DNA of 64,000 nucleotides, taken from assembly GCA_026386845.1 (NCBI GenBank), contig JAPLMW010000028.1, positions 2,729-66,728 on the forward strand, in the 5' to 3' direction. The notes under the pieces were generated by a model that saw only the letters and a list, made by a program, of their open reading frames with translations, was not told the origin of the DNA and did not search any database. The stretch's first letter is position 1. Each line of letters begins with the position of its first letter. The stretch comes from Phycisphaerae bacterium (GTDB lineage: Bacteria > Planctomycetota > Phycisphaerae > Sedimentisphaerales > UBA12454). Of this stretch, positions 4,179-60,305 are shown one piece after another. A program made the position numbers and the translations under genes.

Positions 4179-4438
4179 TTGCGCTATTTTACAACATTTG
4201 TCTCATCCGCGGGGTTTTATTATAATAAGTTGTTCCGTCTGAATCCATTATTAGATAAAATCTTCATCATTATGCAATATTTTGCCTGATTGAAACGTCT
4301 ATAAATATATAATTAATATGTTTTTTATGAAAGAAAGGAAGTGATGAAACGGCAGTAACATATTTATTTGTCAGATGTTATAATAGAATGTTGTAGAAAT
4401 AAAGTTGAAAAGGGTAATTTAAATTAGGAGTTTTAAAA

Positions 4439-4873
4439 ATGAAAAAATTGATTGTATTAATCCTTACGGCTGCGATGGTTGAATTTTTGTTTGTTGGTGT
4501 ATCTAAAGCCCAGGAGCCTAACGCGCCCAAGCATGAGCCTAATGCACCCAGATTTGACCCAAATATGTTCAGGGGCAGGGTCGTTGTGGTTAAAGATGCA
4601 AATGGCATTATCACGGCGGTAAAATTAGAAAACAGAAGACGCGGGACATTCAATATTGTCCTTGATGAAAAAGGCAAAGAGCTTGGCGAGAAAATGGTGG
4701 ATAAGTTTGTAGAAATCACCGGCACGGAAACAACCAAGGATAACGAAAAATGGCTGACTGTTGAAAAGTACACCGAAATGCAACGACCAGGTCCTCGCGG
4801 CCCAGGCGATCCCAATAGACATGGACCAGGTGGTCCTCCGCGAGGTGGTCCGGGCGGCGAAGGCGGGCGGTAA
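4439..4873 (+). CDS. small secreted protein, paralogous N-terminus (MKKLIVL..., EPNAP repeats) with a Gly/Pro-rich C-terminal tail
   Basis: Signal-like MKKLIVLILTAAMVEFLFVGVSKA, then QEPNAPKHEPNAPRFDPN, ending RPGPRGPGDPNRHGPGGPPRGGPGGEGGR. RBS aggag. The upstream leader resembles that of the 3828 gene. Confidence 0.7.
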   Translation: MKKLIVLILTAAMVEFLFVGVSKAQEPNAPKHEPNAPRFDPNMFRGRVVVVKDANGIITAVKLENRRRGTFNIVLDEKGKELGEKMVDKFVEITGTETTKDNEKWLTVEKYTEMQRPGPRGPGDPNRHGPGGPPRGGPGGEGGR

Positions 4874-4906
4874 GTCAACTTCGTAGATTTACAAAGAGCT
4901 GAAATT

Positions 4907-4935
4907 ACCGGCGGATTAAGTCCGCCGGTTTTTTA
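4907..4935. terminator. bidirectional hairpin terminator between convergent genes
   Basis: ACCGGCGGA-ttaag-TCCGCCGGT followed by TTTTTT. It lies between the 4439-4873 gene (+) and budA (-). Confidence 0.75.
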
Positions 4936-5691
4936 TTTCTCAACTTTTTGAAGGTCTTTCGACTTGTCTTTCGATAAATCTATATTTTTCAACGAATCAT
5001 CTTCCGGCAGGATGAGCAAAAACTTACTGCACTTGTCTATTCTGCATTTACCTGTTTCCAATTCAAAATCAAGAATATGACCGCCGAATGTAAAATTGCC
5101 GCTTAAAAAATGGAAATGACAGCCGGTAACATTTAAACCTTTCGCAAAAGCCGGCGTTCTAAAGCCGACAATAGTTCCTCTTACATCATTCATTTCAAAA
5201 ACAGGTTGAGTTTTGGCGACCTCGGCCAAAGGCGGATAGGGTTTTTGCTGGGCAGGGACGCTTCGGACCTTAATATGTTTAAATGTTCCTGAAATCTCGA
5301 CGGCTAAAAAAATATTCTGATTCGAGACTTTCTTATTAATAATCGACTCAGCAGTTTTGAAATCCGCAGACTGTATGGGAAATTGCTCATCAGGCTGGAA
5401 ATTACAGACTGTTGCGAAAGGGGTTTTGGTACTTAACGCAGGGCGGTAAACCTTGCCATCGGACTTAATTTGATATATTTTGCCTTGCAGGATAGTCATT
5501 TCTCCGTCGAGCTTGTCGAAAGTGCCGATACCCAAATTGCCATAAGCCAATAATTGCTGACAGGTCATTTGCCCGTCATAAGTTCCGGCCAGCAAGGCAT
5601 CAATGGTTGACGTCTGGGTAATTTGGTTCTTTGCCGCAGGCAAACAGCCGCTGCAAAATACTAATACAAAAACAAACAATATCTTTTTCAT
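4933..5691 (-). CDS. budA: alpha-acetolactate decarboxylase with lipoprotein-type signal peptide
   Basis: IDALLAGTYDGQMTCQQLLAYGNLGIGTFDKLDGEMTILQGKIYQ matches the conserved AlsD/BudA N-terminal core. The N-terminus MKKILFVFVLVFCSGC has a lipobox-like FCSGC. Confidence 0.8.
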   Translation of the reverse strand: MKKILFVFVLVFCSGCLPAAKNQITQTSTIDALLAGTYDGQMTCQQLLAYGNLGIGTFDKLDGEMTILQGKIYQIKSDGKVYRPALSTKTPFATVCNFQPDEQFPIQSADFKTAESIINKKVSNQNIFLAVEISGTFKHIKVRSVPAQQKPYPPLAEVAKTQPVFEMNDVRGTIVGFRTPAFAKGLNVTGCHFHFLSGNFTFGGHILDFELETGKCRIDKCSKFLLILPEDDSLKNIDLSKDKSKDLQKVEK

Positions 5692-5796
5692 TTTTACTCC
5701 ACAAGAATAAGATATTAGAATATAATCAGTTCCATAAAATCTTCAATCTTAAATTCAATTGTTGTAGTGGCTGTAGGGAACTTTTAAAATTAAGGT

Positions 5797-22589: not shown

Positions 22590-22832
22590 GCCACAGAGTC
22601 CACAGAGAAACACAGAGGTTTGTTTTTTGCTTCAACAATCCTGATTTAATCGGGATTGTGTTCAAAACCAAAACGGCTCGCATCAAAAACGCCTTTTTGT
22701 GCCGACCGTTTTGTTTTGAACACAGGCTCATTGAGCCTGTTGAAGCAAAAAACAAACAACCCGTGTTAATCCGTGTCCATCCGTGTCTAAAAATAAACAA
22801 AATATCTCGGTGTTCTCTGTGAGCTCTGTGGC
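22590..22832. repeat. MITE-like nested palindromic element (~243 bp) with ~27-bp terminal inverted repeats
   Basis: The left end gccacagagtccacagagaaacacagag (22590-22617) is the near reverse complement of the right end ctcggtgttctctgtgagctctgtggc (22806-22832). Internal perfect inverted repeat: gtttgttttttgcttcaaca (22618-22637) with tgttgaagcaaaaaacaaac (22738-22757). There are further nested stems. Confidence 0.7.
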
Positions 22833-23370
22833 TAAAAAGAAAAAAAATAAATTCCTGCGTTTTCTTGAGTATAAGATTTTGCACATTGATGATTCGCCGC
22901 ACAAAATTGCGCTCGGTCTCGCAATAGGTTTGTTTGTTGCCTGGACGCCGCTGCTGGGGCTGCACTTATTAATAGTGATTTTTTTAAGTATGCTTCTGCG
23001 GGCAAACAAGTTTGCCGGCCTTGTAAGCGTCTGGGTTTCAAATGTTTTTACTTTCTTTATTATTTACTACCCCAGCTATCTTGTCGGCAGGATTGTATGC
23101 GAGGTGTTTGTGCGGAATGAGGATATGAGTGAGGAGCAGGTCTCGGAGATTTTCAACAAACTTTTTGCGCCGGCAAATATCATTACGGATATTTTTACAA
23201 AACAATACTGGATTCAATTCTGGGACCTGACAAAATCGATAGGGCTGGAATTATGGATTGGCGGGTTTATCATTGGCGGTCTTGTCGCCGTCTGCTCTTA
23301 TGTTATCTGCTATAAACTTATCATGTCTCACCGCGCCAAAAATCCCCACCGCAGGTACAGAAAATATTAA
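22783..23370 (+). CDS. DUF2062-family membrane protein
   Basis: ILHIDDSPHKIALGLAIGLFVAWTPLLGLHLLIVIFLSMLLRAN is the DUF2062 core. The first ~15 codons lie in the MITE-like element, so the true start may be the in-frame GTG at 22828. Confidence 0.7.
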   Translation: MSKNKQNISVFSVSSVAKKKKNKFLRFLEYKILHIDDSPHKIALGLAIGLFVAWTPLLGLHLLIVIFLSMLLRANKFAGLVSVWVSNVFTFFIIYYPSYLVGRIVCEVFVRNEDMSEEQVSEIFNKLFAPANIITDIFTKQYWIQFWDLTKSIGLELWIGGFIIGGLVAVCSYVICYKLIMSHRAKNPHRRYRKY

Positions 23371-23377
23371 TATTTAG

Positions 23378-23402
23378 CCCCCACTTTCAGTGGGGGTTTT
23401 TA
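23378..23402 (+). terminator. hairpin + T-run (also a member of the GGGGG/CCCCC REP family)
   Basis: CCCCCACT-ttc-AGTGGGGG followed by TTTTTA, 8 nt after the stop at 23370. Confidence 0.7.
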
Positions 23403-23403
23403 T

Positions 23404-23436
23404 TTCGTGGTTAGCCCTGCCAACACCTTGGCAGGG
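23404..23436. repeat. REP-like unit (GTGGTTAGCC + CCCTGCCA-N8-TGGCAGGG hairpin)
   Basis: ttcgtggttagccctgccaacaccttggcaggg. The same architecture recurs at 24305-24336, 30421-30450, 31418-31450 and 32304-32333. Confidence 0.8.
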
Positions 23437-23547
23437 TTTGCGTCTCTCACACATTGATTGATAATTATCAACTATCTATTTTTGCTTCAAAATCGCCATT
23501 TTGAGAATTTTAATTTGGGTAATTTGGATTTATTTAGGATTTAGAAA

Positions 23548-23970
23548 TTAGGATTTAGAATTTTGTTCTCCTTTCCACTTATGGCCGCAATTGTTGCATG
23601 TGTACCTTTTGAGTGGGAAAGTCAGCGGCAATCGGTAAAGAAGTATTGAAATAAAGAATGCCCAGCGGGAATATTTTTCATAATCAATATCGGCATTGCC
23701 GCATTTCGGGCATTTTATATCATAGCTTTGGTCTGCATTTGCTTTTTCCGGCCGGTTAATATTTTTAAGAATTTCCAGGGCCTTTTGTTTATCGGATTCC
23801 TTTATATAAAGTTTTATACCGCCTTCGGCATTAGCACAAAGCCAGTAAGTGGCGACGAAATTTTCACCGGACAAAAAACATTGGATACCTTCACGTTCAA
23901 GAGCTATCTTTGCAATTTCCGCCCGCAGGTAGTCATTAAAGGAATCAATTTTTATTATCTTTTCATCCAT
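23548..23970 (-). CDS. DUF2007-like domain protein with C-terminal CxxC...CxxC zinc ribbon
   Basis: The N-terminal region (ALEREGIQCFLSGEN...) resembles the DUF2007 family. The C-terminal region has CPKCGN...CNNCGH. Confidence 0.5.
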   Translation of the reverse strand: MDEKIIKIDSFNDYLRAEIAKIALEREGIQCFLSGENFVATYWLCANAEGGIKLYIKESDKQKALEILKNINRPEKANADQSYDIKCPKCGNADIDYEKYSRWAFFISILLYRLPLTFPLKRYTCNNCGHKWKGEQNSKS

Positions 23971-24039
23971 TTTTTAATTGTAGTAGCTATACTTAACCTG
24001 ACAGACAGATTACTTTGTCTGCCAGGTATTGTCTAACAT

Positions 24040-24340
24040 TTTTTGTTTAGCCGTCGCCGGTCTTGTCCTACGTAGTCTTTGACGAAGTAGGAACGGCGAC
24101 GCGTTTTATTTATTTAGCCCCTCGGCCTTAATCCTGCATAGCAGGATGCCGAGGGGTTCGTTCTCATCGGGGGGGGTTTCGTTCGTGGTTAGCCCCGTCA
24201 TCTTAAATCCGCCTCAGGCAGATTTGATGACGGGGTTACTTTTTATCCCGCACCAATCATTCACAACGCAACAGAGCCCCGAATGTAAATGAGGGGTAAT
24301 CCATAAGTGGTTAGCCCCGCCAACACTTTGGCGGGGTTCA
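24040..24340. repeat. cluster of at least 4 REP-like GC hairpins, each preceded by TTAGCC
   Basis: Units read: ttagccGTCGCCG...CGGCGAC, ttagccCCTCGGC...GCCGAGGGG, gtggttagccCCGTCATC...GATGACGGGG (with an inner ATCCGCCTCAGGC hairpin), and gtggttagccCCGCCAacactttGGCGGGG. Confidence 0.85.
24253..24340. repeat. copy A of an ~88-nt repeat, inverted relative to copy B at 30417-30505
   Basis: ccaatcattcacaacgcaacagagccccgaatgtaaatgaggggtaatccataagtggttagcc + hairpin. It equals the reverse complement of 30417-30505 with a 1-nt indel and paired (compensatory) changes in the hairpin stem. Confidence 0.85.
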
Positions 24341-24451
24341 TTCAACTGCATAAAAAAACTTGCTTTTCTTTCCAGTTTAACGATATACTGCTTACTTTTA
24401 TAATAGAAATTAGTATGGTGTCCCCATATTTTTCAAAGGAGATTTACTCTT

Positions 24452-24928
24452 ATGTGTTCAAGTACCTACGACCCCAAATATGTCTTTCGCTATGACAAAC
24501 ATATGCCTGATACTGATGATTTATCGTTAATAGTATTGAAAGGACATCTTCTTATCGAGGAAATGCTCATTGATATAAGAGATAAACTTTTCCCGCATGC
24601 TGAGTATTTGGATTCCGTCAATATAAATTTTAACCAACTTTTAAATGTTATAAGATCAGCCATAAAATCAAAACACGATCACAAATCTTGGGATTTGATT
24701 GTCGCGTTCAATAGACTTCGTAATAAACTTATTCACAACCTTGAACCTCCTGAGCTTAAAAGTCTACTAAACCAATTATTCAACGTGTACTCTCATACTC
24801 AACCTTATGAGGAAATACAAATAGATAAGAGCGACGAGACAGAACTTGATACTGCCCAACGTTTAAAAAATGTTGTAATAGACTGTATGCAATTTTTGAT
24901 GTCCGTATTATCCTTGTATAATAAATAA
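24452..24928 (+). CDS. hypothetical protein with HEPN-like Rx4H motif (RNKLIH)
   Basis: A+T-rich 158-aa all-helical-looking ORF with RBS aaaggag. The motif NRLRNKLIHNLEP fits the HEPN R-[N/D/H]-x3-H signature in the C-terminal half. Confidence 0.45.
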   Translation: MCSSTYDPKYVFRYDKHMPDTDDLSLIVLKGHLLIEEMLIDIRDKLFPHAEYLDSVNINFNQLLNVIRSAIKSKHDHKSWDLIVAFNRLRNKLIHNLEPPELKSLLNQLFNVYSHTQPYEEIQIDKSDETELDTAQRLKNVVIDCMQFLMSVLSLYNK

Positions 24929-24997
24929 GCCTAATCACGTGCTTCGCATAAAGCTATACAGTATATTATAGGGTAGGGGTCGTTTACCTATTTTCGA

Positions 24998-25056
24998 TTT
25001 TCTACTGTTGTCCATCCTCGTTGTCTGCCAAAATTCTATCTCTTTTTCTTTTCAAA
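24998..25056 (+). repeat. ~60-nt dispersed repeat, copy 1 (copy 2 at 43498-43556)
   Basis: attttctactgttgtccatcctcgttgtctgccaaaattctatctctttttcttttcaaa compared with attttctgctgttgcaattcctcgttgctttacaaaattctaccaccgcttttttcaaa. Confidence 0.75.
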
Positions 25057-25060
25057 CTTT

Positions 25061-25161
25061 ACCCGCCTCAGGCGGGTCAACCGAAATAATTTTATTTAGC
25101 CGCCGCCATTCAGGGCGGCGTTTCCTCAACTCAAAACTAAGATTTATCCGCCTCAGGCGGA
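25061..25161. repeat. REP-like hairpin cluster (CCGCCTCAGGCGG x2, TTAGCC-CGCCGCC hairpin)
   Basis: cccgcctcaggcggg (25062-25076), ttagcCGCCGCCattcagGGCGGCG (25101-25120), tccgcctcaggcgga (25147-25161). Confidence 0.8.
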
Positions 25162-25240
25162 ACTCAAAATTAAAAACTATAAAATTTTCTCCCTCATTCT
25201 CTACCGCCCGCGTCTTTTTGTCAAACCTTCTTTTCTCCTA

Positions 25241-25527
25241 ATAAATCCGTGAAATCCGTGGTTAAAAACTGTGCTGTAACCGTGTTTTGTTTCAACAAAG
25301 GATGCTTTTTCAGCCTGTGGACAAAGCAAACCGGCAAGTATAAGAAATTCTTTTTGCTTTAAGGCGCAATTGCGCAGCGGTAAAAAATTCAATTACAGAC
25401 CCGTTGAAGTTTGACTTCAAAAAGGGGCTGTTTGAATTTTACTGTGTTCGCAGAACACCGCCTTAAAGCAAATATACCGTGTAAATCTGTGTCTAAATTC
25501 TCTGTGTTGCTCGGTGAACTCTGTGGC
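25241..25527. repeat. second, degenerate copy of the MITE-like nested palindrome
   Basis: Its right end ccgtgtaaatctgtgtctaaattctctgtgttgctcggtgaactctgtggc parallels 22761-22832. Internal inverted repeat: tttgctttaaggcg / cgccttaaagcaaa. The left end has ccgtgaaatccgtgg words. Confidence 0.6.
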
Positions 25528-25604
25528 TATATAATTAGTGTCGATTCGTGCCTGCCCCGCCATAGCCTTGGCGACGGCGGGTTCATTCGTGGTTCAAAAC
25601 CGTT

Positions 25605-28466
25605 TTAGCTTTTCACGACCTCGATACAACGCTCGCAAAGCTCTGGATTATCCGAATTTGTTCCCACGCTCGGCCAATAATTCCAGCATCTCTGGCACTT
25701 TTTATGAGGACTCTTCTCGGCTGAAATAAGCTTTTGCGATTTTGCCTTATTTAGTTTTATCTCGCTTGCAATGCAGAGTGCCGCGAAGTTCTTAACGCCG
25801 AATTGCTCAACCGTATTTATTAAATCATTGTCTCCGGTTGTTATGGTTATCGACGATTCCTGATTACTGGCGATGGTCTGGTTCTGGCGAAGGCCTTCAA
25901 GCTCTTTTAAAACCTCATCGCGAAGTTTCATCAGCTTTTCCCATTTCGGCTCTTCTTTCTGCCAGTCAATCGTCTTATCAATCTGCGGCATCTTCAGCAA
26001 ATGAATACTTTCAGCAATTTCAGTTTTGAAGGTTATAGATTCATAAATTTCTTCTGCTGTATGAACAAGGATAGGTGCAAGCATTCTGGCTAAGCAATCG
26101 AGGATGGAATACATTGCCGTTTGTGCGCTTCGTCTTGAAAGCGAATCTTTCGCATCGCAATAGAGCCTGTCTTTGAGCAAATCCATATAAATACTGCTCA
26201 TTTCGATAACGCAGAAGTTGTAAATGAGCGTATAAACCTTGTGGAAAAGGAAATTTTCATAAGCGTCCGTAACTTCACTAATGAGTTTTTGCAATTGTTG
26301 CACTGCCCAGCGGTCAATCTCGAACATCTTTTCATAAGGCACGCTGTTTTTCGATGGTTCGAAATCGGATGTATTGCCGAGCAGATAGCGTAATGTGTTT
26401 CTTATTTTCCTATAGGCATCTTGAAGTCTTGCGATAAGCGAATCGCTGCACCGCATATCTTCCTGATAATTTACGCTCGCGACCCAAAGCCGCAGAATAT
26501 CCGAGCCGTATTTTGTAACTTCATCCTGTGCGTTAACATAATTTCCGAGCGATTTTGACTGTTTTTTCCCTTCTGCATCAACAGTAAAACCGTGGGTGAG
26601 GACTGTTTTGAAAGGCTCAACGCCTTCGGCTCCGAGGGCAGGCAGAAGTGAAAGTTGGAACCAGCCTCGATGTTGGTCGGAGCCTTCGAGGTATAAATCG
26701 ACTGGAATCGGCCAGCCGGCCTGTTTCGCAACGCTATACCAGCTGCAGCCTGATTCGAACCAGACATCGAAGATATTTTCTTCCTTTTGTAAGTCGTCGA
26801 AGCTGAAGCCTGCCGGCAGTTTGAAATTTTCGCCGAGTATTTCTTTGGGGCTGTCTGTAAACCAGCTATCCGAACCTTTTTTTCTTATATGTTCCGCGAC
26901 TGCCAATACAGATTCCTTTGTTAAAAGAGATTTACACTCTGAATTATAAAAAACAGGTATTGGCATACCCCAGCATCGCTGTCTGCTAATACACCAATCA
27001 GGTCTTGATTCGAGCATCCCCGTAATCCGTTTTTCGCCCCAGGCAGGAATCCATTTAACCTTTGGTATTCTTTCAAGTGCTAATTGCCTTAAACTTTTTC
27101 CGTCCTGCGGTGAGCCTGCCGAACCCGTCGGCATTGTTCTATCAACACTAATGAACCATTGCTCCGTACTACGGAAAATTACGGGCATTCTGCTTCTCCA
27201 ACAATGCGGATAGCTGTGCGTAATCTGACCCTCCGCGAAAAGTAAGCCTTTGTTCCTGAGATAGTCATTAACCTCTTTATCAACTTTCAGGACATTTTTG
27301 CCGCAAAGCCATTCAGGAACAGTCTCGTCATAACAGCCATCGTCCTTCACCGGCGAGTAAACCGCTAATTTGTTCTGCTGACCGGCCACATAATCTTCAA
27401 GGCCATGGCCGGGGGCGATGTGAACAAGACCTGTGCCGTCCTCTGTTGTAACAAAATTGGCGCTGATTATCAGCCAGGCATCCTTATCAGTCGGATTCTT
27501 CTCAATGCAAGGATGACTATATCGCAAACCAATAAGACAGGAGCCTTTTACGGTTTTTTCGCTAACTGTATAATTAGACAATTTGCCTGCAGCAATAACA
27601 GCCTCGAGGCGAGCCTGCGCGATAATCGAAGTAAACTTTTGGCCGTTCTGTGAATAGCTGACAGCCTTATAATCGAGGTCTGGATTGGCTGCTATCGCAA
27701 GATTCGCGGCAAGTGTCCAAGGCGTTGTCGTCCAAATCATAAAACAAACGCTGCTGTCGTCTTTGACAAGACCCAGCGATTTTAATTTTGCTGCGGACTC
27801 TTTCGCCGCAGTAAAATTGACGAAAATGCTCGGCGAAGTAATATCCTCATATTCCAATTCGGCATCGGCAAGGGCGGTCTGACAGCCAATCGACCAGTGA
27901 ATAGGTTTTAACTGCTTATAGACAAGACCTTTTCCCACAAGCTCGGCAAAGACTTCACAGATGCCAGCCTCGTATTGCGGCTTGAGGGTAAGATAAGGAT
28001 TTTCAAAATCGCCGAATACGCCGAGGTCTTTAAACTGCTTTGTCTGAAGTTTTACATATTTGCTCGCGTATTGCTTGCAGAGCTTTCGGATTTCGAGCTT
28101 GCTGAGGGTTTTGGCCTTTTCGCCAAGCTCCGTAAAGACCTTCGCCTCAATCGGCAGGCCGTGGCAGTCCCAGCCGGGGACGTAAGGAGCCTTGAAGCCG
28201 GACATTGTTTTGTATTTGACGACTATGTCTTTTAAAACTTTATTTATGACGTGGCCCATGTGGATATCGCCATTGGCGTAAGGGGGGCCATCGTGAAGAA
28301 TATACTGCGGACAATCCGCTCTTGAATCGAGGATTTTTTTGTAGATGCCCATCTTGTCCCAGCTTTTCCGCTGCTGCGGCTCGCGCTGGGTGAGATTGGC
28401 CTTCATCGCAAAGTTAGTCTGCGGCAGATTTAACGTCTTACTGTAGTTTTTCTTGTCTTCGGTCAT
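25605..28466 (-). CDS. ileS: isoleucyl-tRNA synthetase
   Basis: HIGH-type motif PYANGDIHMGHV, KMSKS-type motif GKKQSKSLGN, and a C-terminal Zn finger CQRCWNY...CERC. I prefer the ATG at 28466 (MTEDKKNYSKTLNLPQT) over the ORF-track start at 28490. Confidence 0.96.
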   Translation of the reverse strand: MTEDKKNYSKTLNLPQTNFAMKANLTQREPQQRKSWDKMGIYKKILDSRADCPQYILHDGPPYANGDIHMGHVINKVLKDIVVKYKTMSGFKAPYVPGWDCHGLPIEAKVFTELGEKAKTLSKLEIRKLCKQYASKYVKLQTKQFKDLGVFGDFENPYLTLKPQYEAGICEVFAELVGKGLVYKQLKPIHWSIGCQTALADAELEYEDITSPSIFVNFTAAKESAAKLKSLGLVKDDSSVCFMIWTTTPWTLAANLAIAANPDLDYKAVSYSQNGQKFTSIIAQARLEAVIAAGKLSNYTVSEKTVKGSCLIGLRYSHPCIEKNPTDKDAWLIISANFVTTEDGTGLVHIAPGHGLEDYVAGQQNKLAVYSPVKDDGCYDETVPEWLCGKNVLKVDKEVNDYLRNKGLLFAEGQITHSYPHCWRSRMPVIFRSTEQWFISVDRTMPTGSAGSPQDGKSLRQLALERIPKVKWIPAWGEKRITGMLESRPDWCISRQRCWGMPIPVFYNSECKSLLTKESVLAVAEHIRKKGSDSWFTDSPKEILGENFKLPAGFSFDDLQKEENIFDVWFESGCSWYSVAKQAGWPIPVDLYLEGSDQHRGWFQLSLLPALGAEGVEPFKTVLTHGFTVDAEGKKQSKSLGNYVNAQDEVTKYGSDILRLWVASVNYQEDMRCSDSLIARLQDAYRKIRNTLRYLLGNTSDFEPSKNSVPYEKMFEIDRWAVQQLQKLISEVTDAYENFLFHKVYTLIYNFCVIEMSSIYMDLLKDRLYCDAKDSLSRRSAQTAMYSILDCLARMLAPILVHTAEEIYESITFKTEIAESIHLLKMPQIDKTIDWQKEEPKWEKLMKLRDEVLKELEGLRQNQTIASNQESSITITTGDNDLINTVEQFGVKNFAALCIASEIKLNKAKSQKLISAEKSPHKKCQRCWNYWPSVGTNSDNPELCERCIEVVKS

Positions 28467-28758
28467 TATTTTAAGTTCCTGATAAAACAAGACATAATAG
28501 TTTCTATTTGCAGGTCTGTCAAGTGTTTAGAACGGATACGAACCACGGATATCACGGATTCTTGGGATATTTGGTATTTAGTATATGGTATTTGACAAAG
28601 AGATAAGAATGGTAGAAAATGTGGCATAGACACTAAGGTACTAAGACACAAAAAAATCGTAAAAGTGTTGCGAATCGAGGCGTATAATATGGGAATGCCA
28701 GTCGGATATGCATCGAAAAAGTATCCCGATGTTTGTCTGAACTGTTGCAGGATTTAGG

Positions 28759-30229: not shown

Positions 30230-30450
30230 TTTGAGTTGTGGAATCGCCGGGGGCGAAAGTGTCAATTTTAGATCCGCCGTCGCCAACCCTCCGTCGCATT
30301 GCGTGCTATGTAGGGCAGGGGCTATGGCGGACAAGTTTTGGATTGACGATTTTGGATTTCGGAAACGGACGCCGCACCAATCGGAATGAATACCGCGGAC
30401 TTACGTCCTGCGGCTCTGAACCCTGCCATAGTGATGGCAGGGCTAACCAC
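30230..30450. repeat. REP-like hairpin cluster, including a nested unit
   Basis: ccgccgtcgccaa[33-nt insert]ggctatggcgg is the reverse-oriented version of the 25556-25581 hairpin. ccctgccatagtgatggcagggctaaccac lies at 30421-30450. Confidence 0.75.
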
Positions 30451-30505
30451 TTATGGATTACCCCCTCATTTACATTCGGGGCTCTGTTGCGTTGTGAATG
30501 ATTGG
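30417..30505. repeat. copy B of the ~88-nt inverted repeat (partner at 24253-24340)
   Basis: See copy A. It overlaps the last ~13 codons of the HNH gene. Confidence 0.85.
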
Positions 30506-31119
30506 GGCGACATTTTGAATTTGTATTTGTTCAAATCGGTTTCCAATAAAAAACTCCTGAATGGTTCATATTTAAAGATTTCGAAATTCAACGGCGCGTA
30601 TTCCTCATCGTTTGCCAACAAAACAAATTTATCGTGGGCGTAAGCGGCTAAAATCCGATGCTCGGGACAATCAATAGCACAGAATAGAAGCGTTTTGCCA
30701 TCCCTATTGTAAAACCGGCCTCTGCAAAAATTTTTGCCTTTTATTGTGTAAATGCTAACGCCGGCAAAGCCGGTATTGTTTCTTGGTTTCCTGTTCAGGC
30801 CGTTTTGCCTGTGATTGGTGATTCTGAGGTTCTCTCTGCGATTGTCAAGCCTGTCGCCGTTAATGTGGTCAACAACTGAATCCGGCGGCGGGTTCATAAT
30901 AAAACGTGAAACGGGGACGAGCCTTGTCGGATTTTTTCCGATGTGAAGAATCGGGTAGTTTTCGCCGGAGAGGCGCAGGCCGATTATATCGCCGACATAT
31001 TTTCGGCGAGGGCGAGTGGGACGGATGTTAAAAATCTGATAATAAATATCAGGGTCAACTTTAACGGTCCGGCCGCTAATCGTAAAAGTCAGAAAATCAA
31101 TTGCGCTTTGTGAAGACAT
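30466..31119 (-). CDS. HNH endonuclease with AP2-like DNA-binding domain (homing-endonuclease type)
   Basis: HNH motif VDHINGDRLDNRRENLRITNHRQN, followed by the AP2-like stretch GFAGVSIYTIKGKNFCRGRFYNRDGKTLLFCAIDCPEHRILAAYAHDKFV. Confidence 0.8.
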   Translation of the reverse strand: MSSQSAIDFLTFTISGRTVKVDPDIYYQIFNIRPTRPRRKYVGDIIGLRLSGENYPILHIGKNPTRLVPVSRFIMNPPPDSVVDHINGDRLDNRRENLRITNHRQNGLNRKPRNNTGFAGVSIYTIKGKNFCRGRFYNRDGKTLLFCAIDCPEHRILAAYAHDKFVLLANDEEYAPLNFEIFKYEPFRSFLLETDLNKYKFKMSPQSFTTQQSPECK

Positions 31120-31378: not shown

Positions 31379-31476
31379 CCCCCAATATAAAATTGGGGGC
31401 TTCAGGATTTTAACGAACCCTGCCATAGTGATGGCAGGGCTAACCACGAACAAAAACCCCCACTGAAAGTGGGGGC
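31379..31476. repeat. REP-like hairpin cluster (3 units)
   Basis: cccccaatataaaattggggg, ccctgccatagtgatggcagggctaaccacgaa and cccccactgaaagtgggggctaa. The last is the inverted copy of 23378-23396. Confidence 0.85.
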
Positions 31477-31574
31477 TAAATATGGAATTAAACAATGGAA
31501 CAATTCTGTTTAAAAATTGCCTGAAAGACGATAATACTATAAGAATACCATTTTTAATTAAAGGGAGGCCAATT

Positions 31575-47442: not shown

Positions 47443-47552
47443 TATTAGTAAAATCCGCTACATCTGGATTCCCGCTTTCGCGGGAATGACACGACTGTTC
47501 TATCATTATTTTATATCTCTGTGTTCTCTGTGAACTCTGTGGCTAAACTTAA

Positions 47553-57791: not shown

Positions 57792-60305
57792 GTGAAGATT
57801 TACAAAAGGATAAAGTCATCAGCCGGCACTTGCGGCCTGGTCGTTTTCGTCTTATCAGCAATAGCAATCTCGCCTGCCTTTTCACAGTGTAACTTCGAAT
57901 GGAAACAGGGTTATGGTCCTCCGGGTATGAGTGGACGTGCTTATCAGGGTAAAAGTTTGGCTGTTTTTGCTGTAACTAAATGGGACCCTGATGGAGCAGG
58001 ACCTCAGTCTGAACTTCTCGTTGCCGGGGGAAGTTTTACTAAAGCAGGGGGTATAGATGCTAATAACATTGCCGCATGGAATGGCAGCAATTGGCAGCCG
58101 CTTGGCAGCGGAATAAGCGGGGACTCTTCTGCTTGTATCGTGGCCCTTACGATCTATAATGGCCGGCTTATCGCAGGAGGCAATTTTACTACTGCAGGTG
58201 GTCAGACAGCCAACTATATTGCCGCATGGGACGGCAACAGTTGGCAATCCCTTGGTAATGGAATGAACAATCTGGTTTACTCTCTTACAGTCTATAATGA
58301 CCGGCTCATCGCAGGAGGCGAGTTTACTACAGCAGGCGGTCAGAGTGCCAATTACATTGCCGCCTGGGACGGCAATAGTTGGCAGCCACTTGGCAGTGGG
58401 ATGAGTGAAACTCCTGGTCATGCTTTTCCTGGTGTCGAAGCTCTTACAGCCTATAATGGCCGACTTATCGCAGGAGGCAATTTTACTACTGCAGATGGTC
58501 GGGATGTCAACAACATTGCTGCTTGGGATGGCAATAGTTGGCGGCCGCTTGGCAGCGGGATGAACAATCAGGTTTATGCTCTTACGGTCTATAACAGCCG
58601 GATTATTGCAGGGGGCAATTTTGCCACAGCAGGTGGTATAGACGCCAATTGTATCGCCGCATGGGACGGCAACAGTTGGCAGTCGCTTGGCAATGGAATA
58701 AGCGGAGGCTCTTATCCTGATGTCCGGGATCTTACAGTTTATAACAACCGGCTTATTGCAGGAGGCATTTTTACTACTGCCGGTGGTCGGGATGTCAACA
58801 ACATTGCTGCCTGGGATGGCAATAGTTGGCAGTCGCTTGGTAGTGGGATGAGCGATGGTGCTTATTATCCTCCTTATGTCGAAGCTCTTACAGTCTATAA
58901 CGATCAGCTTATTGCAGGGGGCAATTTTACCAAAGCAGGCGGTATGATAGTCAACCATATTGTTGCATGGGATGGTAGTAATTGGTCGCCGATATTAGGC
59001 GGTCCAAGTAAACCGGTTGTGGCTTTTACGATTTATAATGACCGGCTTATCGCAGGAGGTGGTTTTATTGCAGCAGGCGGCCAGAGTGCCAGCCGTATTG
59101 TTGCATGGGATGGTAATAATTGGCAGCCGCTCGGCAGCGGAGTAAGCAGGAACTCTCCCGCTGATTCCAATTGCTATGTCGGAGCTGCTACGGTCTATGA
59201 CGGTCGGCTTATTGCCGGAGGTAACTTTACCAAAGCAGGCGGTATAGATGCCAACCAAATTGCTGCATGGGATGGCAATAGCTGGCAGCCGCTCGGAAGC
59301 GGAATGAACTATTCGGTTTATGCTCTTGCGGTCTATGACGGCCGGCTTATCGCAGGAGGCAATTTTACTACGGCAGGCGGTCAGAGCGCCAATTGCATTG
59401 CCGCATGGGACGGCAATAGCTGGCAACCGCTCGGCAGCGGTATGAACTATGGGATCTATGCGCTTACAGTCTATAATGACCAGCTTATCACTGGAGGTCT
59501 TTTTACTCAAGCGGGCGGTCAAAATGCTAACTACATCGCTGCATGGGATGGCAATAGTTGGCAGCCGCTTGGCAGCGGTATAACCGGAAGTATGCCTATT
59601 GTCTTTGCCCTTACAGTTTATAATGGCTGCCTTATCGCGGGTGGCAGTTTTACCTCGGCGGGTGGCCGGAGTGCCAACCGCATTGCCGCATGGGATGGCA
59701 ATAGTTGGCAGCCGCTTGGCAGTGGAATGAGTGGAGGCTCTTTTCCTTCTATTTCTGCCCTTACGACATATAATGGTGAGCTTATTACCGGCGGCAATTT
59801 TTCCAAAGCAGGCGGCATAGATGCTAATCGCATTGCCGCTTGGGACGGCAATAGCTGGCAGCCGCTCGGCTACGGTATTGATGGAAATTTTCCTTCTGCT
59901 CTTGCGGTCTATAACGGTGAGCTTATCGTGGGCGGCAATTTTACCAGGGCAGGCGGAAAATATTCATATTACTGGGCAAGATGGGGGCCGGTATTTTATG
60001 CAGGAGATTTAAACAGCGATTGCATTGTCGATACATTGGATTTGGGATTGCTCGCAGATCAGTGGCTGCTTGAAAAATTATCTGCTGATGTTGCTCCAAG
60101 CGGAGGTGACGGTATTGTTAATTTTATTGACTGGGCGGCCTTTGCCAATAATTGGCAGGGTGATATGAATAGTCTTGCGGATTTTTCTTCTCAATGGTTA
60201 ATGCGAAGCGCTTATTCCGCTGATATTGCGCCTACTCCAAGCGGCGATGGGTTTGTCAATATGCTGGACTTTGCCTTGTTTGCTGAACACTGGCTTGAAG
60301 AATAG
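57792..60305 (+). CDS. secreted ~14-blade beta-propeller repeat protein with C-terminal dockerin-like module
   Basis: GTG start after a gaggaag RBS, then a signal peptide. There are ~13-14 repeats of ~48 aa (IAAWDGNSWQPLGSGMN..VYALTVYNGRLIAGGNFTTAGGQSANY). The C-terminus has DLNSDCIVDTLDLGLLADQWL, GDGIVNFIDWAAFANNW and GDGFVNMLDFALFAEHW (dockerin/EF-hand-like). Confidence 0.75.
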   Translation: MKIYKRIKSSAGTCGLVVFVLSAIAISPAFSQCNFEWKQGYGPPGMSGRAYQGKSLAVFAVTKWDPDGAGPQSELLVAGGSFTKAGGIDANNIAAWNGSNWQPLGSGISGDSSACIVALTIYNGRLIAGGNFTTAGGQTANYIAAWDGNSWQSLGNGMNNLVYSLTVYNDRLIAGGEFTTAGGQSANYIAAWDGNSWQPLGSGMSETPGHAFPGVEALTAYNGRLIAGGNFTTADGRDVNNIAAWDGNSWRPLGSGMNNQVYALTVYNSRIIAGGNFATAGGIDANCIAAWDGNSWQSLGNGISGGSYPDVRDLTVYNNRLIAGGIFTTAGGRDVNNIAAWDGNSWQSLGSGMSDGAYYPPYVEALTVYNDQLIAGGNFTKAGGMIVNHIVAWDGSNWSPILGGPSKPVVAFTIYNDRLIAGGGFIAAGGQSASRIVAWDGNNWQPLGSGVSRNSPADSNCYVGAATVYDGRLIAGGNFTKAGGIDANQIAAWDGNSWQPLGSGMNYSVYALAVYDGRLIAGGNFTTAGGQSANCIAAWDGNSWQPLGSGMNYGIYALTVYNDQLITGGLFTQAGGQNANYIAAWDGNSWQPLGSGITGSMPIVFALTVYNGCLIAGGSFTSAGGRSANRIAAWDGNSWQPLGSGMSGGSFPSISALTTYNGELITGGNFSKAGGIDANRIAAWDGNSWQPLGYGIDGNFPSALAVYNGELIVGGNFTRAGGKYSYYWARWGPVFYAGDLNSDCIVDTLDLGLLADQWLLEKLSADVAPSGGDGIVNFIDWAAFANNWQGDMNSLADFSSQWLMRSAYSADIAPTPSGDGFVNMLDFALFAEHWLEE
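58060..59990 (+). repeat. ~144-nt tandem coding repeats (propeller blades)
   Basis: Strings such as gccgcatgggacggcaatagttggcagccgcttggcagcgg recur about every 144-150 nt. Confidence 0.85.

Follow-up and report, generated by a model that had tools for sequence, protein, structure and literature searches.

The stretch of DNA analysed here, referred to as the window, comprises 64,000 nt of the metagenome-assembled genome of a Phycisphaerae bacterium, and all coordinates without a locus name refer to the whole window. The gene of interest occupies positions 24452–24928 of the plus strand and encodes a stand-alone HEPN-domain protein of 158 residues with an ATG start. It is enclosed by two core genes on the minus strand. 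One of them (23548–23970) encodes a DUF2007 and zinc-ribbon protein and was found by neighbour comparison to be ancestrally coupled to ileS; the other is ileS itself (25605–28490), the gene for isoleucyl-tRNA synthetase. The gaps on both sides of the HEPN gene measure 481 nt upstream (23971–24451) and 676 nt downstream (24929–25604). They are non-coding and contain arrays of hairpins resembling repetitive extragenic palindromic (REP) elements. Hairpin arrays and HEPN gene, the latter on the strand opposite to its neighbours, form an inserted islet (23971–25604) that was delimited with the help of empty sites in relatives.

The open reading frame (ORF) is preceded by the ribosome-binding site (RBS) AAGGAG at 24436–24441 of the plus strand with a spacing of 10 nt to the ATG. 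Its G+C content is 33%, compared with 44% for the window. In the public annotation the protein (NTW93_02880, "hypothetical protein") has 141 residues and begins with M18 (position 24503), which cuts off the VFRYDxHMP block conserved in the family. The RBS is kept in three close copies of the gene (L002, L007 and L008), and the sequence further upstream diverges between copies. Because both the VFRYDxHMP block and the RBS are conserved, M1 is the true start and the annotated start is too late. A candidate sigma-70-like promoter (TTAACG-16-TATAAT, 24377–24404 of the plus strand) is a consensus match only, with agreement at 10 of 12 positions, and is not kept in relatives. Between close copies of the gene dN/dS is 0.19–0.74. 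This shows that the gene is a genuine coding sequence that is under purifying selection and evolves fairly fast.

The signature of HEPN domains is Rx4-6H, usually with a polar residue (N, D or H) following the arginine (Anantharaman et al. 2013, PMC3710099). In the window protein this signature is present as R90-N91-K-L-I-H95 (Rx4H with Asn after Arg, 24719–24736 of the plus strand), which is the predicted catalytic motif. It is part of the peptide NRLRNKLIHNLEP; the codons of R90 and H95 are located at 24719–24721 and 24734–24736, respectively. A word-indexed search yielded 47 homologues at E ≤ 1e-3, and an exhaustive search yielded at least 1001 matching representatives of 50%-identity clusters (174 at E ≤ 1e-10). 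From these, alignment A1 with 28 closer homologues, which was also used to gather related loci of the HEPN gene, and alignment A2 with 132 distant representatives (identity down to ~25%) were built. R90, N91 and H95 are invariant in A1 and are the only invariant columns of A2. Because these three residues are invariant across the family, the occurrence of R-N-x3-H in the ORF is not due to chance. A second conserved block, L26–E37 (LIVLKGHLLIEE, 24527–24562 of the plus strand), was recognised near the N-terminus in A1 and belongs to the first long helix of the structural model (residues 24–46). Nearly invariant in A2 are L29, K30, G31, H32, L33, E36, F60, W80 and N87. The K30-G31-H32-x3-E36 part of the block could border the active site or the interface of a dimer.

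Distant members of the family are found in Planctomycetota, Acidobacteriota, Alpha-, Gamma- and Deltaproteobacteria, Melainabacteria and Methylomirabilota. They are labelled as hypothetical by all sources, and none has a precomputed Pfam domain. The longer family members contain no fused domain recognisable by Pfam. One sub-clade (P0048, P0129, P0206, P0208 and P0210; L025 2925–3932) carries a conserved N-terminal domain of ~135 residues fused to the HEPN domain, with the motifs DYHHIDDxRCF...AGWEGDG...PPCF...YHVKQxNNG. This domain has no Pfam match, and its AlphaFold2 (AF2) model is too poor to interpret (predicted local distance difference test, pLDDT, of 46). It was considered as a hidden partner and rejected, as it is encoded neither in the window nor in any fetched locus. 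The gene of P0208 adjoins McrBC and a HepT/MNT pair.

The AF2 model of the 158-residue protein (pLDDT 87, predicted TM-score 0.84) is all-helical and has the all-α up-down helical bundle of the HEPN superfamily. A Foldseek search against the PDB places HepS (9oik and 9oij) at the top with a probability of 0.99–1.0 and TMq values of 0.54–0.57. HepS is the HEPN Solo defence element of the Salmonella prophage Gifsy-1, a single protein without a partner (PDB entries 9oij and 9oik; PMC13043305). It is followed by MtlR/YggD, SsR10 (2q00), 1wwp, the HEPN-MNT toxins 7bxo, 8xeh and 5yep and the HEPN domain of sacsin (3o10). Since the E-values of these matches are 0.035 or worse, the fold alone is insufficient for an assignment.

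Profile comparisons point to the same superfamily. The best three matches of the A2 profile among the sequences of the PDB are two Csm6 proteins (5yjc and 6tug) and HepS (9oij), all of them aligned on the motif (LNsLRNklAHnLE in the family, INGLRNSIAHNLD in Csm6, MNNIRNKYAHKIE in HepS). Weak Pfam matches among the 132 members are to RiboL-PSP-HEPN (18 members), Cthe_2314 HEPN (17) and DUF4145 (6), and also to Swt1 HEPN, Csm6_HEPN and Abi_2. The best E-value is 9.3e-5, and all of these matches are below the curated gathering score. The commonest weak matches in PADLOC are to CARF_HEPN, Csm6, RTasHEPN and Cas13 models. Searches with the single sequence of the window protein returned nothing from the PDB or NCBIfam, and the sole Pfam match obtained in this way, DUF4455, was taken as chance. 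The first profile match, the dNTP (deoxynucleoside triphosphate) triphosphohydrolase 9p8v, was rejected: its Arg and His are not aligned with those of the motif, and it vanishes with a deeper profile.

Conservation, fold, profile matches in the PDB and matches in family libraries agree, and the protein is therefore placed in the HEPN superfamily. Its description as a HEPN-superfamily domain outside every curated family is supported by the data, and very probably it is a HEPN ribonuclease (RNase), as predicted from the motif. The initial annotation had described an A+T-rich ORF of 158 codons with a good RBS, an R-N-x3-H motif at the position expected for HEPN RNases and repeat-rich non-coding DNA of ~480 nt upstream and ~680 nt downstream. 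All of this agrees with the composition, the AAGGAG site, the invariant residues and the gap lengths given above, and its interpretation as a HEPN domain is upheld by the fold, the invariant motif and the concordant weak profile matches.

To trace the origin of the islet, its junction was compared with 38 related metagenomic loci, which were collected by probing with the neighbouring DUF2007 gene. The site is empty in five of these loci (L031, L032, L034, L035 and L036). Here, ileS directly adjoins or overlaps the DUF2007 gene, which has the same orientation, and the stop codon TGA of ileS falls within ATGGATGA. In the window this junction is split by ~1.6 kb. Three other loci (L026, L027 and L033) carry 2.3–3.6 kb of different cargo at the junction, without the HEPN gene. 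The cargo of L027 (2360–6000) encodes a PD-(D/E)XK nuclease, a DUF2321 protein, a membrane protein and an FRG protein; in L026 (412–2756) and L033 (3629–6000) it consists of unknown ORFs. With five sites empty and three occupied by other cargo, the ileS–DUF2007 junction is a recurrent insertion hotspot in this lineage of Phycisphaerae, and the HEPN gene came to it as cargo by horizontal transfer. The low G+C content of the gene fits such an acquisition.

Two further observations concern this junction. The insertion in the window also replaced the last codons of ileS: the protein ends with ...CIEVVKS* in the window and with ...CIEVI(R)NG* in the relatives with empty sites. In the cargo of L033, an ORF of 205 residues (4310–4927) contains an Rx4H-like motif, RHRASH, and has no Pfam match. 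It may encode another divergent HEPN-like protein.

Five loci (L001, L002, L007, L008 and L009) contain copies of the HEPN gene that are 86–94% identical to the window copy at the DNA level. The homology begins at 24431–24436 and ends at 24960–24969, corresponding to limits of −21 nt and +41 nt around the ORF. It comprises the RBS, the ORF and a 3' tail of ~40 nt, and the DNA beyond is unrelated. The contexts of close copies are likewise unrelated to each other: one is located beside the gene of a secreted nuclease, another beside an FRG gene and an XhoI restriction–modification (R-M) system and a third near a SacI-type R-M system. Among the immediate neighbours of distant members are tyrosine integrases and ParE, each in two loci, as well as HsdM, PIN, an SNF2 helicase accompanied by a sacsin-like protein, a resolvase, a tail-tube protein of a phage, a SIR2 protein, a DUF4145-like HEPN protein and McrBC with HepT/MNT. 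Furthermore, four viral contigs of IMG/VR encode relatives, one of which directly adjoins an integrase. Such company is typical of mobile genes that act in conflict or defence.

Some of the loci deserve separate mention. In L008 a gene of 288 residues (4923–5789) is found directly upstream of the family member. It contains the motif RGLRNLAAH and has a sub-threshold match to DUF4145 (E = 3.6e-4), so that two different HEPN genes stand side by side in this locus. In L064 (1–2345) the family member is preceded by a prophage integrase. In L064 and in L065/L066 (6001–7255), which are viral, a distant member is followed by an SRAP/YedK-like gene (phrog_1599, N-terminal MCGR). As a partner phrog_1599 was rejected, since it is located downstream of the member in two viral loci and is absent from every other locus.

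Most likely, with a probability of roughly 0.55, the ORF encodes a solitary, trigger-activated HEPN RNase that resembles HepS in its mode of action and belongs to a large family without a curated model, serving as a defence or suicide nuclease without an antitoxin. HepS is non-toxic when over-expressed; once a phage tail-tip protein has activated it, it cleaves the anticodon loops of tRNAs (PMC13043305). By analogy, the HEPN protein would be produced constitutively from its own promoter and would form a dimer or a higher oligomer, as is usual for HEPN nucleases, which are metal-independent RNases with a composite dimeric active site. At rest, this assembly would occlude the two Rx4H motifs or hold them apart. 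No antitoxin would be needed because, in this proposal, the composite Rx4H site is occluded in the resting state. The switch would be an invader-derived cue, such as a protein of a phage or mobile element, or a stress signal. The activated protein would then cleave cellular RNA (tRNA or mRNA), and this would lead to growth arrest and an abortive-infection type of defence as in HepS. The REP-like hairpins would be no part of the system. They would be signs of a hotspot that is prone to recombination, and they may serve to insulate or terminate converging transcripts.

Several points weigh against the proposed HepS-like role. No curated HEPN model of Pfam or NCBIfam is matched above its threshold by the window protein or by family members. 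The Foldseek matches are weak, with an E-value of 0.035 at best and a TM-score of ~0.57. In sequence, the similarity to HepS falls short of significance (profile E = 0.066) and is confined to the motif region. According to DSSP the model of the window protein has no strands; HepS uses its N- and C-terminal β-strands for the remodelling induced by the trigger. No defence system is present near the gene in the window and its neighbours are housekeeping genes; the association with defence therefore rests on the relatives. The evidence from their neighbourhoods is anecdotal, being drawn from ~25 loci without a background statistic. Finally, oligomerisation, trigger, RNase activity and growth arrest are properties that we infer for the members of this family.

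A non-defensive function, either as a housekeeping or regulatory enzyme of RNA processing or as a non-catalytic binding protein like MtlR/YggD that merely happens to lie between core genes, is unlikely. It would be in line with the presence of MtlR and YggD among the fold matches, with the core genes around the HEPN gene (ileS, DUF2007, DUF2062 and lipopolysaccharide genes) and with a window in which no recognisable defence system was found. The invariance of the catalytic Arg, Asn and His speaks against such a function, as do the absence of the gene from the junction in 8 of 8 syntenic relatives with both flanking genes and the patchy distribution of the family. The atypical G+C content, the mutually unrelated contexts of the close copies and the recurrence of mobile-element and defence genes next to the relatives argue in the same direction.

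It is rather improbable that the HEPN gene is the toxin of a toxin–antitoxin (TA) pair whose antitoxin, either a very small protein or an RNA of type I or III, has gone unrecognised and is encoded in the flanks or in DNA that overlaps the gene. Many HEPN proteins are toxins of TA pairs (Anantharaman et al. 2013, PMC3710099), and the flanks are long and highly structured (folding z-scores of −9.3 upstream and −4.7 downstream); a 3' tail conserved with the gene and antisense ORFs inside it would also fit such a pair. The structure of the flanks is due to the REP-like hairpins, which are a dispersed genomic repeat. Hairpin scan and folding reveal an array of four with the outline TTAGCC-stem-loop-stem-GGTT upstream of the gene (24040–24343). 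In the form [T/G]GTTAGCC-stem-loop-stem-GGTT they are located at 24052–24101, 24118–24156, 24193–24235 and 24315–24336, and downstream of the gene at 25061–25077 and 25101–25120. The downstream hairpins (CCGCCTCAGGCGG twice; GCCGCCGCC..GGCGGCG) extend over 25058–25160. By reading of the sequence and matches to CCGCCTCAGGCGG, related hairpins were assigned to 25148–25160 and 25553–25590; the latter belongs to a REP-like hairpin at 25551–25597 that abuts the stop codon of ileS and was read from the sequence and folded. Hairpins are about five times denser at the junction than in the rest of the window (3.7 versus 0.72 per kb), and TTAGCCSC...GGTT occurs eight times with 0.5 matches expected. Further copies are dispersed over the window at ~23.4, 30.4, 31.4, 32.3 and 38.2 kb. 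The flanks thus have the properties of REP elements, namely dispersed and clustered GC-rich imperfect palindromes with a common frame.

Some hairpins are contained in longer dispersed repeats: 24249–24340 recurs at 30417–30509 (93 nt, 94% identity) and 23370–23438 at 31416–31483 (69 nt, 93% identity). The repeat units are therefore larger than single hairpins. The downstream flank also contains an imperfect palindrome of ~120 nt (GCTTTAAGGCG...CGCCTTAAAGC, 25352–25475), which differs from the REP hairpins, matches nothing in Rfam and occurs only once in the window. Clusters of short motifs containing CYGTG are found at 25243–25290 and 25480–25530 (AAATCCGTG twice, followed by CTGTG/CCGTG repeats); the stretches 25244–25263 and 25499–25529 match 28541–28560, 47516–47545 and 22590–22617. 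Unrelated to the HEPN gene, an ORF of 837 residues (57792–60305) encodes a repeat-domain protein; its internal repeats (58021–59956) are 72–77% identical, with offsets of ~140–290 nt and ~1.2 kb.

The flanks of the window copy are unrelated to those of its 86–94%-identical copies. They have no Rfam match and contain no ToxI-like tandem array; the only tandem repeat reported by Tandem Repeats Finder is a 9-mer in two copies (25243–25260). Tandem repeats kept together with the toxin, as typical of type III TA systems, are therefore lacking around this gene. The 3' tail that accompanies the gene (GCCTAATCACGTGCTTCGCATAAAGCTATACAG..., 24929–24969 of the plus strand, defined by comparison with close copies) folds only into a weak hairpin of 5 bp. 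Antisense ORFs are present inside the gene (24490–24663 and 24780–24938) and recur in some loci, but they are not open in all close copies. They were rejected as antitoxin candidates and are regarded as shadows of the conserved coding sequence. When the ORFs within 3 kb of the gene were all compared with one another across 22 loci, no neighbour family was shared and no small ORF recurred; the only exceptions were the antisense shadows of the HEPN gene and the synteny of loci that are nearly identical. Among the 52 other ORFs of the window there is neither an MNT-type antitoxin nor a recognisable defence system.

The initial annotation had called the gene an orphan without an adjacent partner ORF, and this holds for the window as well as for the 22 loci, in which no partner recurs. 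Its suggestion that the repeat-rich flanks could hide an RNA antitoxin is not supported: these flanks are not conserved with the gene, and their hairpins are dispersed elsewhere. The search it proposed for a type III-style tandem-repeat RNA or an antisense RNA found no array and no antisense ORF that is open throughout the close copies. Moreover, the premise that a HEPN protein requires an antitoxin is outdated: HepS, a characterised defence protein with HEPN as a solo component, shows no toxicity before it is triggered (PMC13043305). In practical terms, the flanks are generic REP DNA and not an antitoxin locus.

Another explanation concerns the mobility of the gene and not its function. It may have travelled as an integron-type cassette whose attC site has mostly been lost in the window genome; this, too, has a low probability. 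In relatives the conserved 3' tail continues into an element of ~100–150 nt that is missing from the window. In L001, L002, L007 and L008 the sequence GCCTAAC (RYYYAAC) directly follows the stop codon, and the element, ending with GTTRRRY (GTTAGGT, ATTAGGC or GTTAGGG), brackets the gene and also precedes the next one. Copies of this bracketing element, with ends of the type ...TATACAGACTGTATAATCATTGTTAGGT, are located at L001 6481–6626, L002 5893–5985 and 6481–6640, L007 744–905 and L008 5912–5985. It also fits a cassette that the homology between copies begins at the RBS. The single-stranded DNA, however, folds only weakly (z-scores of −0.2 to −2.3) and without the paired R/L-box hairpin of an attC site, and the element is longer than typical attC sites. 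A TATAAT box lies within it, and it may simply represent a shared promoter or leader. Among the called genes of L001–L005, to which the search was confined, there was no integron integrase. In the window itself the element is absent, with a degenerate R'' (GCCTAAT) and no R'.

Least probable of all is an effector of a multi-gene system whose other parts are encoded in trans and whose trigger might be a sensor protein or a nucleotide second messenger. At the sequence level, effector domains of Csm6 and CARF-HEPN proteins match most closely, and the fused N-terminal domain of the sub-clade could be a sensor, but the window protein consists of a HEPN domain only, without CARF or another ligand-binding domain, no CRISPR, CBASS (cyclic-oligonucleotide-based antiphage signalling system) or similar genes recur in the neighbourhoods examined, and the gene moves as a single unit.

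If the protein is indeed a solitary defence nuclease of the HepS type, a large and phylogenetically broad family would join the very few HEPN defence nucleases that consist of a single protein, of which HepS is the example characterised so far. The window protein would be a small, well-modelled candidate for studying how a lone HEPN RNase stays silent without an antitoxin. As no Pfam or NCBIfam model exists for the family, thousands of its genes are now called "hypothetical protein". The locus also provides a clean example of an empty versus a filled site, with a hotspot inside an overlapping ileS–DUF2007 gene pair of Phycisphaerae. A more far-reaching proposal is speculative and on balance doubtful. 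It regards the proteins as a family of single-gene immune sentinels with at least 1000 clusters at 50% identity that is unrecognised by databases. Their activation would be distinct from that of HepS, as terminal β-strands are lacking, and the K-G-H-x3-E block would take part in catalysis or in the choice of substrate. The genes would spread into hotspots as cassettes of ORF and RBS, possibly in an attC-like manner.

Among known systems, the HEPN-MNT (HepT-MntA) toxins share the HEPN fold and the Rx4-6H motif, and 7bxo, 8xeh and 5yep are among the fold matches. Their TM-scores are lower (0.28–0.36), however, and the HepT-like family PF01934 is matched by only 2 of 28 members at E = 0.036. An MNT gene is adjacent neither in the window nor in any of the 22 loci. 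At the catalytic helix, the sequence matches Csm6/Csx1 proteins best (INxLRNxIAHNLD compared with LNxLRNxLAHxLE in the family), although the matches cover only ~22 residues at E-values of ~0.03–0.05, and many CARF_HEPN and Csm6 models of PADLOC are weakly matched. In contrast to these proteins, the window protein is a single domain of 158 residues without CARF, and there are no CRISPR-Cas genes in the neighbourhoods examined. The window protein is thus not a HEPN-MNT toxin, not a Csm6/Csx1 protein and not a type III TA toxin.

The Pfam models most often matched by members are RiboL-PSP-HEPN (PF18735), Cthe_2314-like (PF18730) and DUF4145 (PF13643). Cthe_2314 was described in the HEPN survey of 2013 as an Rx4-6H-positive bacterial family for which no fusions or operon partners were detected (PMC3710099). 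In sequence space the family is closest to the Cthe_2314-like and RiboL-PSP HEPN families. The window protein itself matches none of the three models. Because no member reaches their gathering scores, the proteins are considered a HEPN family of their own, for which no curated model exists.

HepS, the best structural match, has the identical R-N-x3-H form (IRNKYAHKIE with R100, N101 and H105, compared with LRNxLAHxLE in the family), and both are small stand-alone proteins without conserved partner genes that occur on mobile elements or prophages. HepS is an inactive tetramer whose opening is brought about by J, the tail-tip protein of siphophages (PMC13043305). The proteins differ in several respects. 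The structural alignment has an identity of 16%, and the window protein is shorter (158 residues compared with ~190–212). Its family has an additional, nearly invariant KGHLLxE block. The host ranges are also different: HepS homologues were reported from Bacillaceae to Enterobacteriaceae (PMC13043305), whereas the family of the window protein is found in Planctomycetota, Acidobacteriota, Proteobacteria and other phyla. Of the systems compared here, the window gene would work most like HepS, with membership in the HepS family itself not established. The HEPN superfamily and solo HEPN defence by HepS are already known; new is a large, as yet unnamed family of solitary HEPN proteins.

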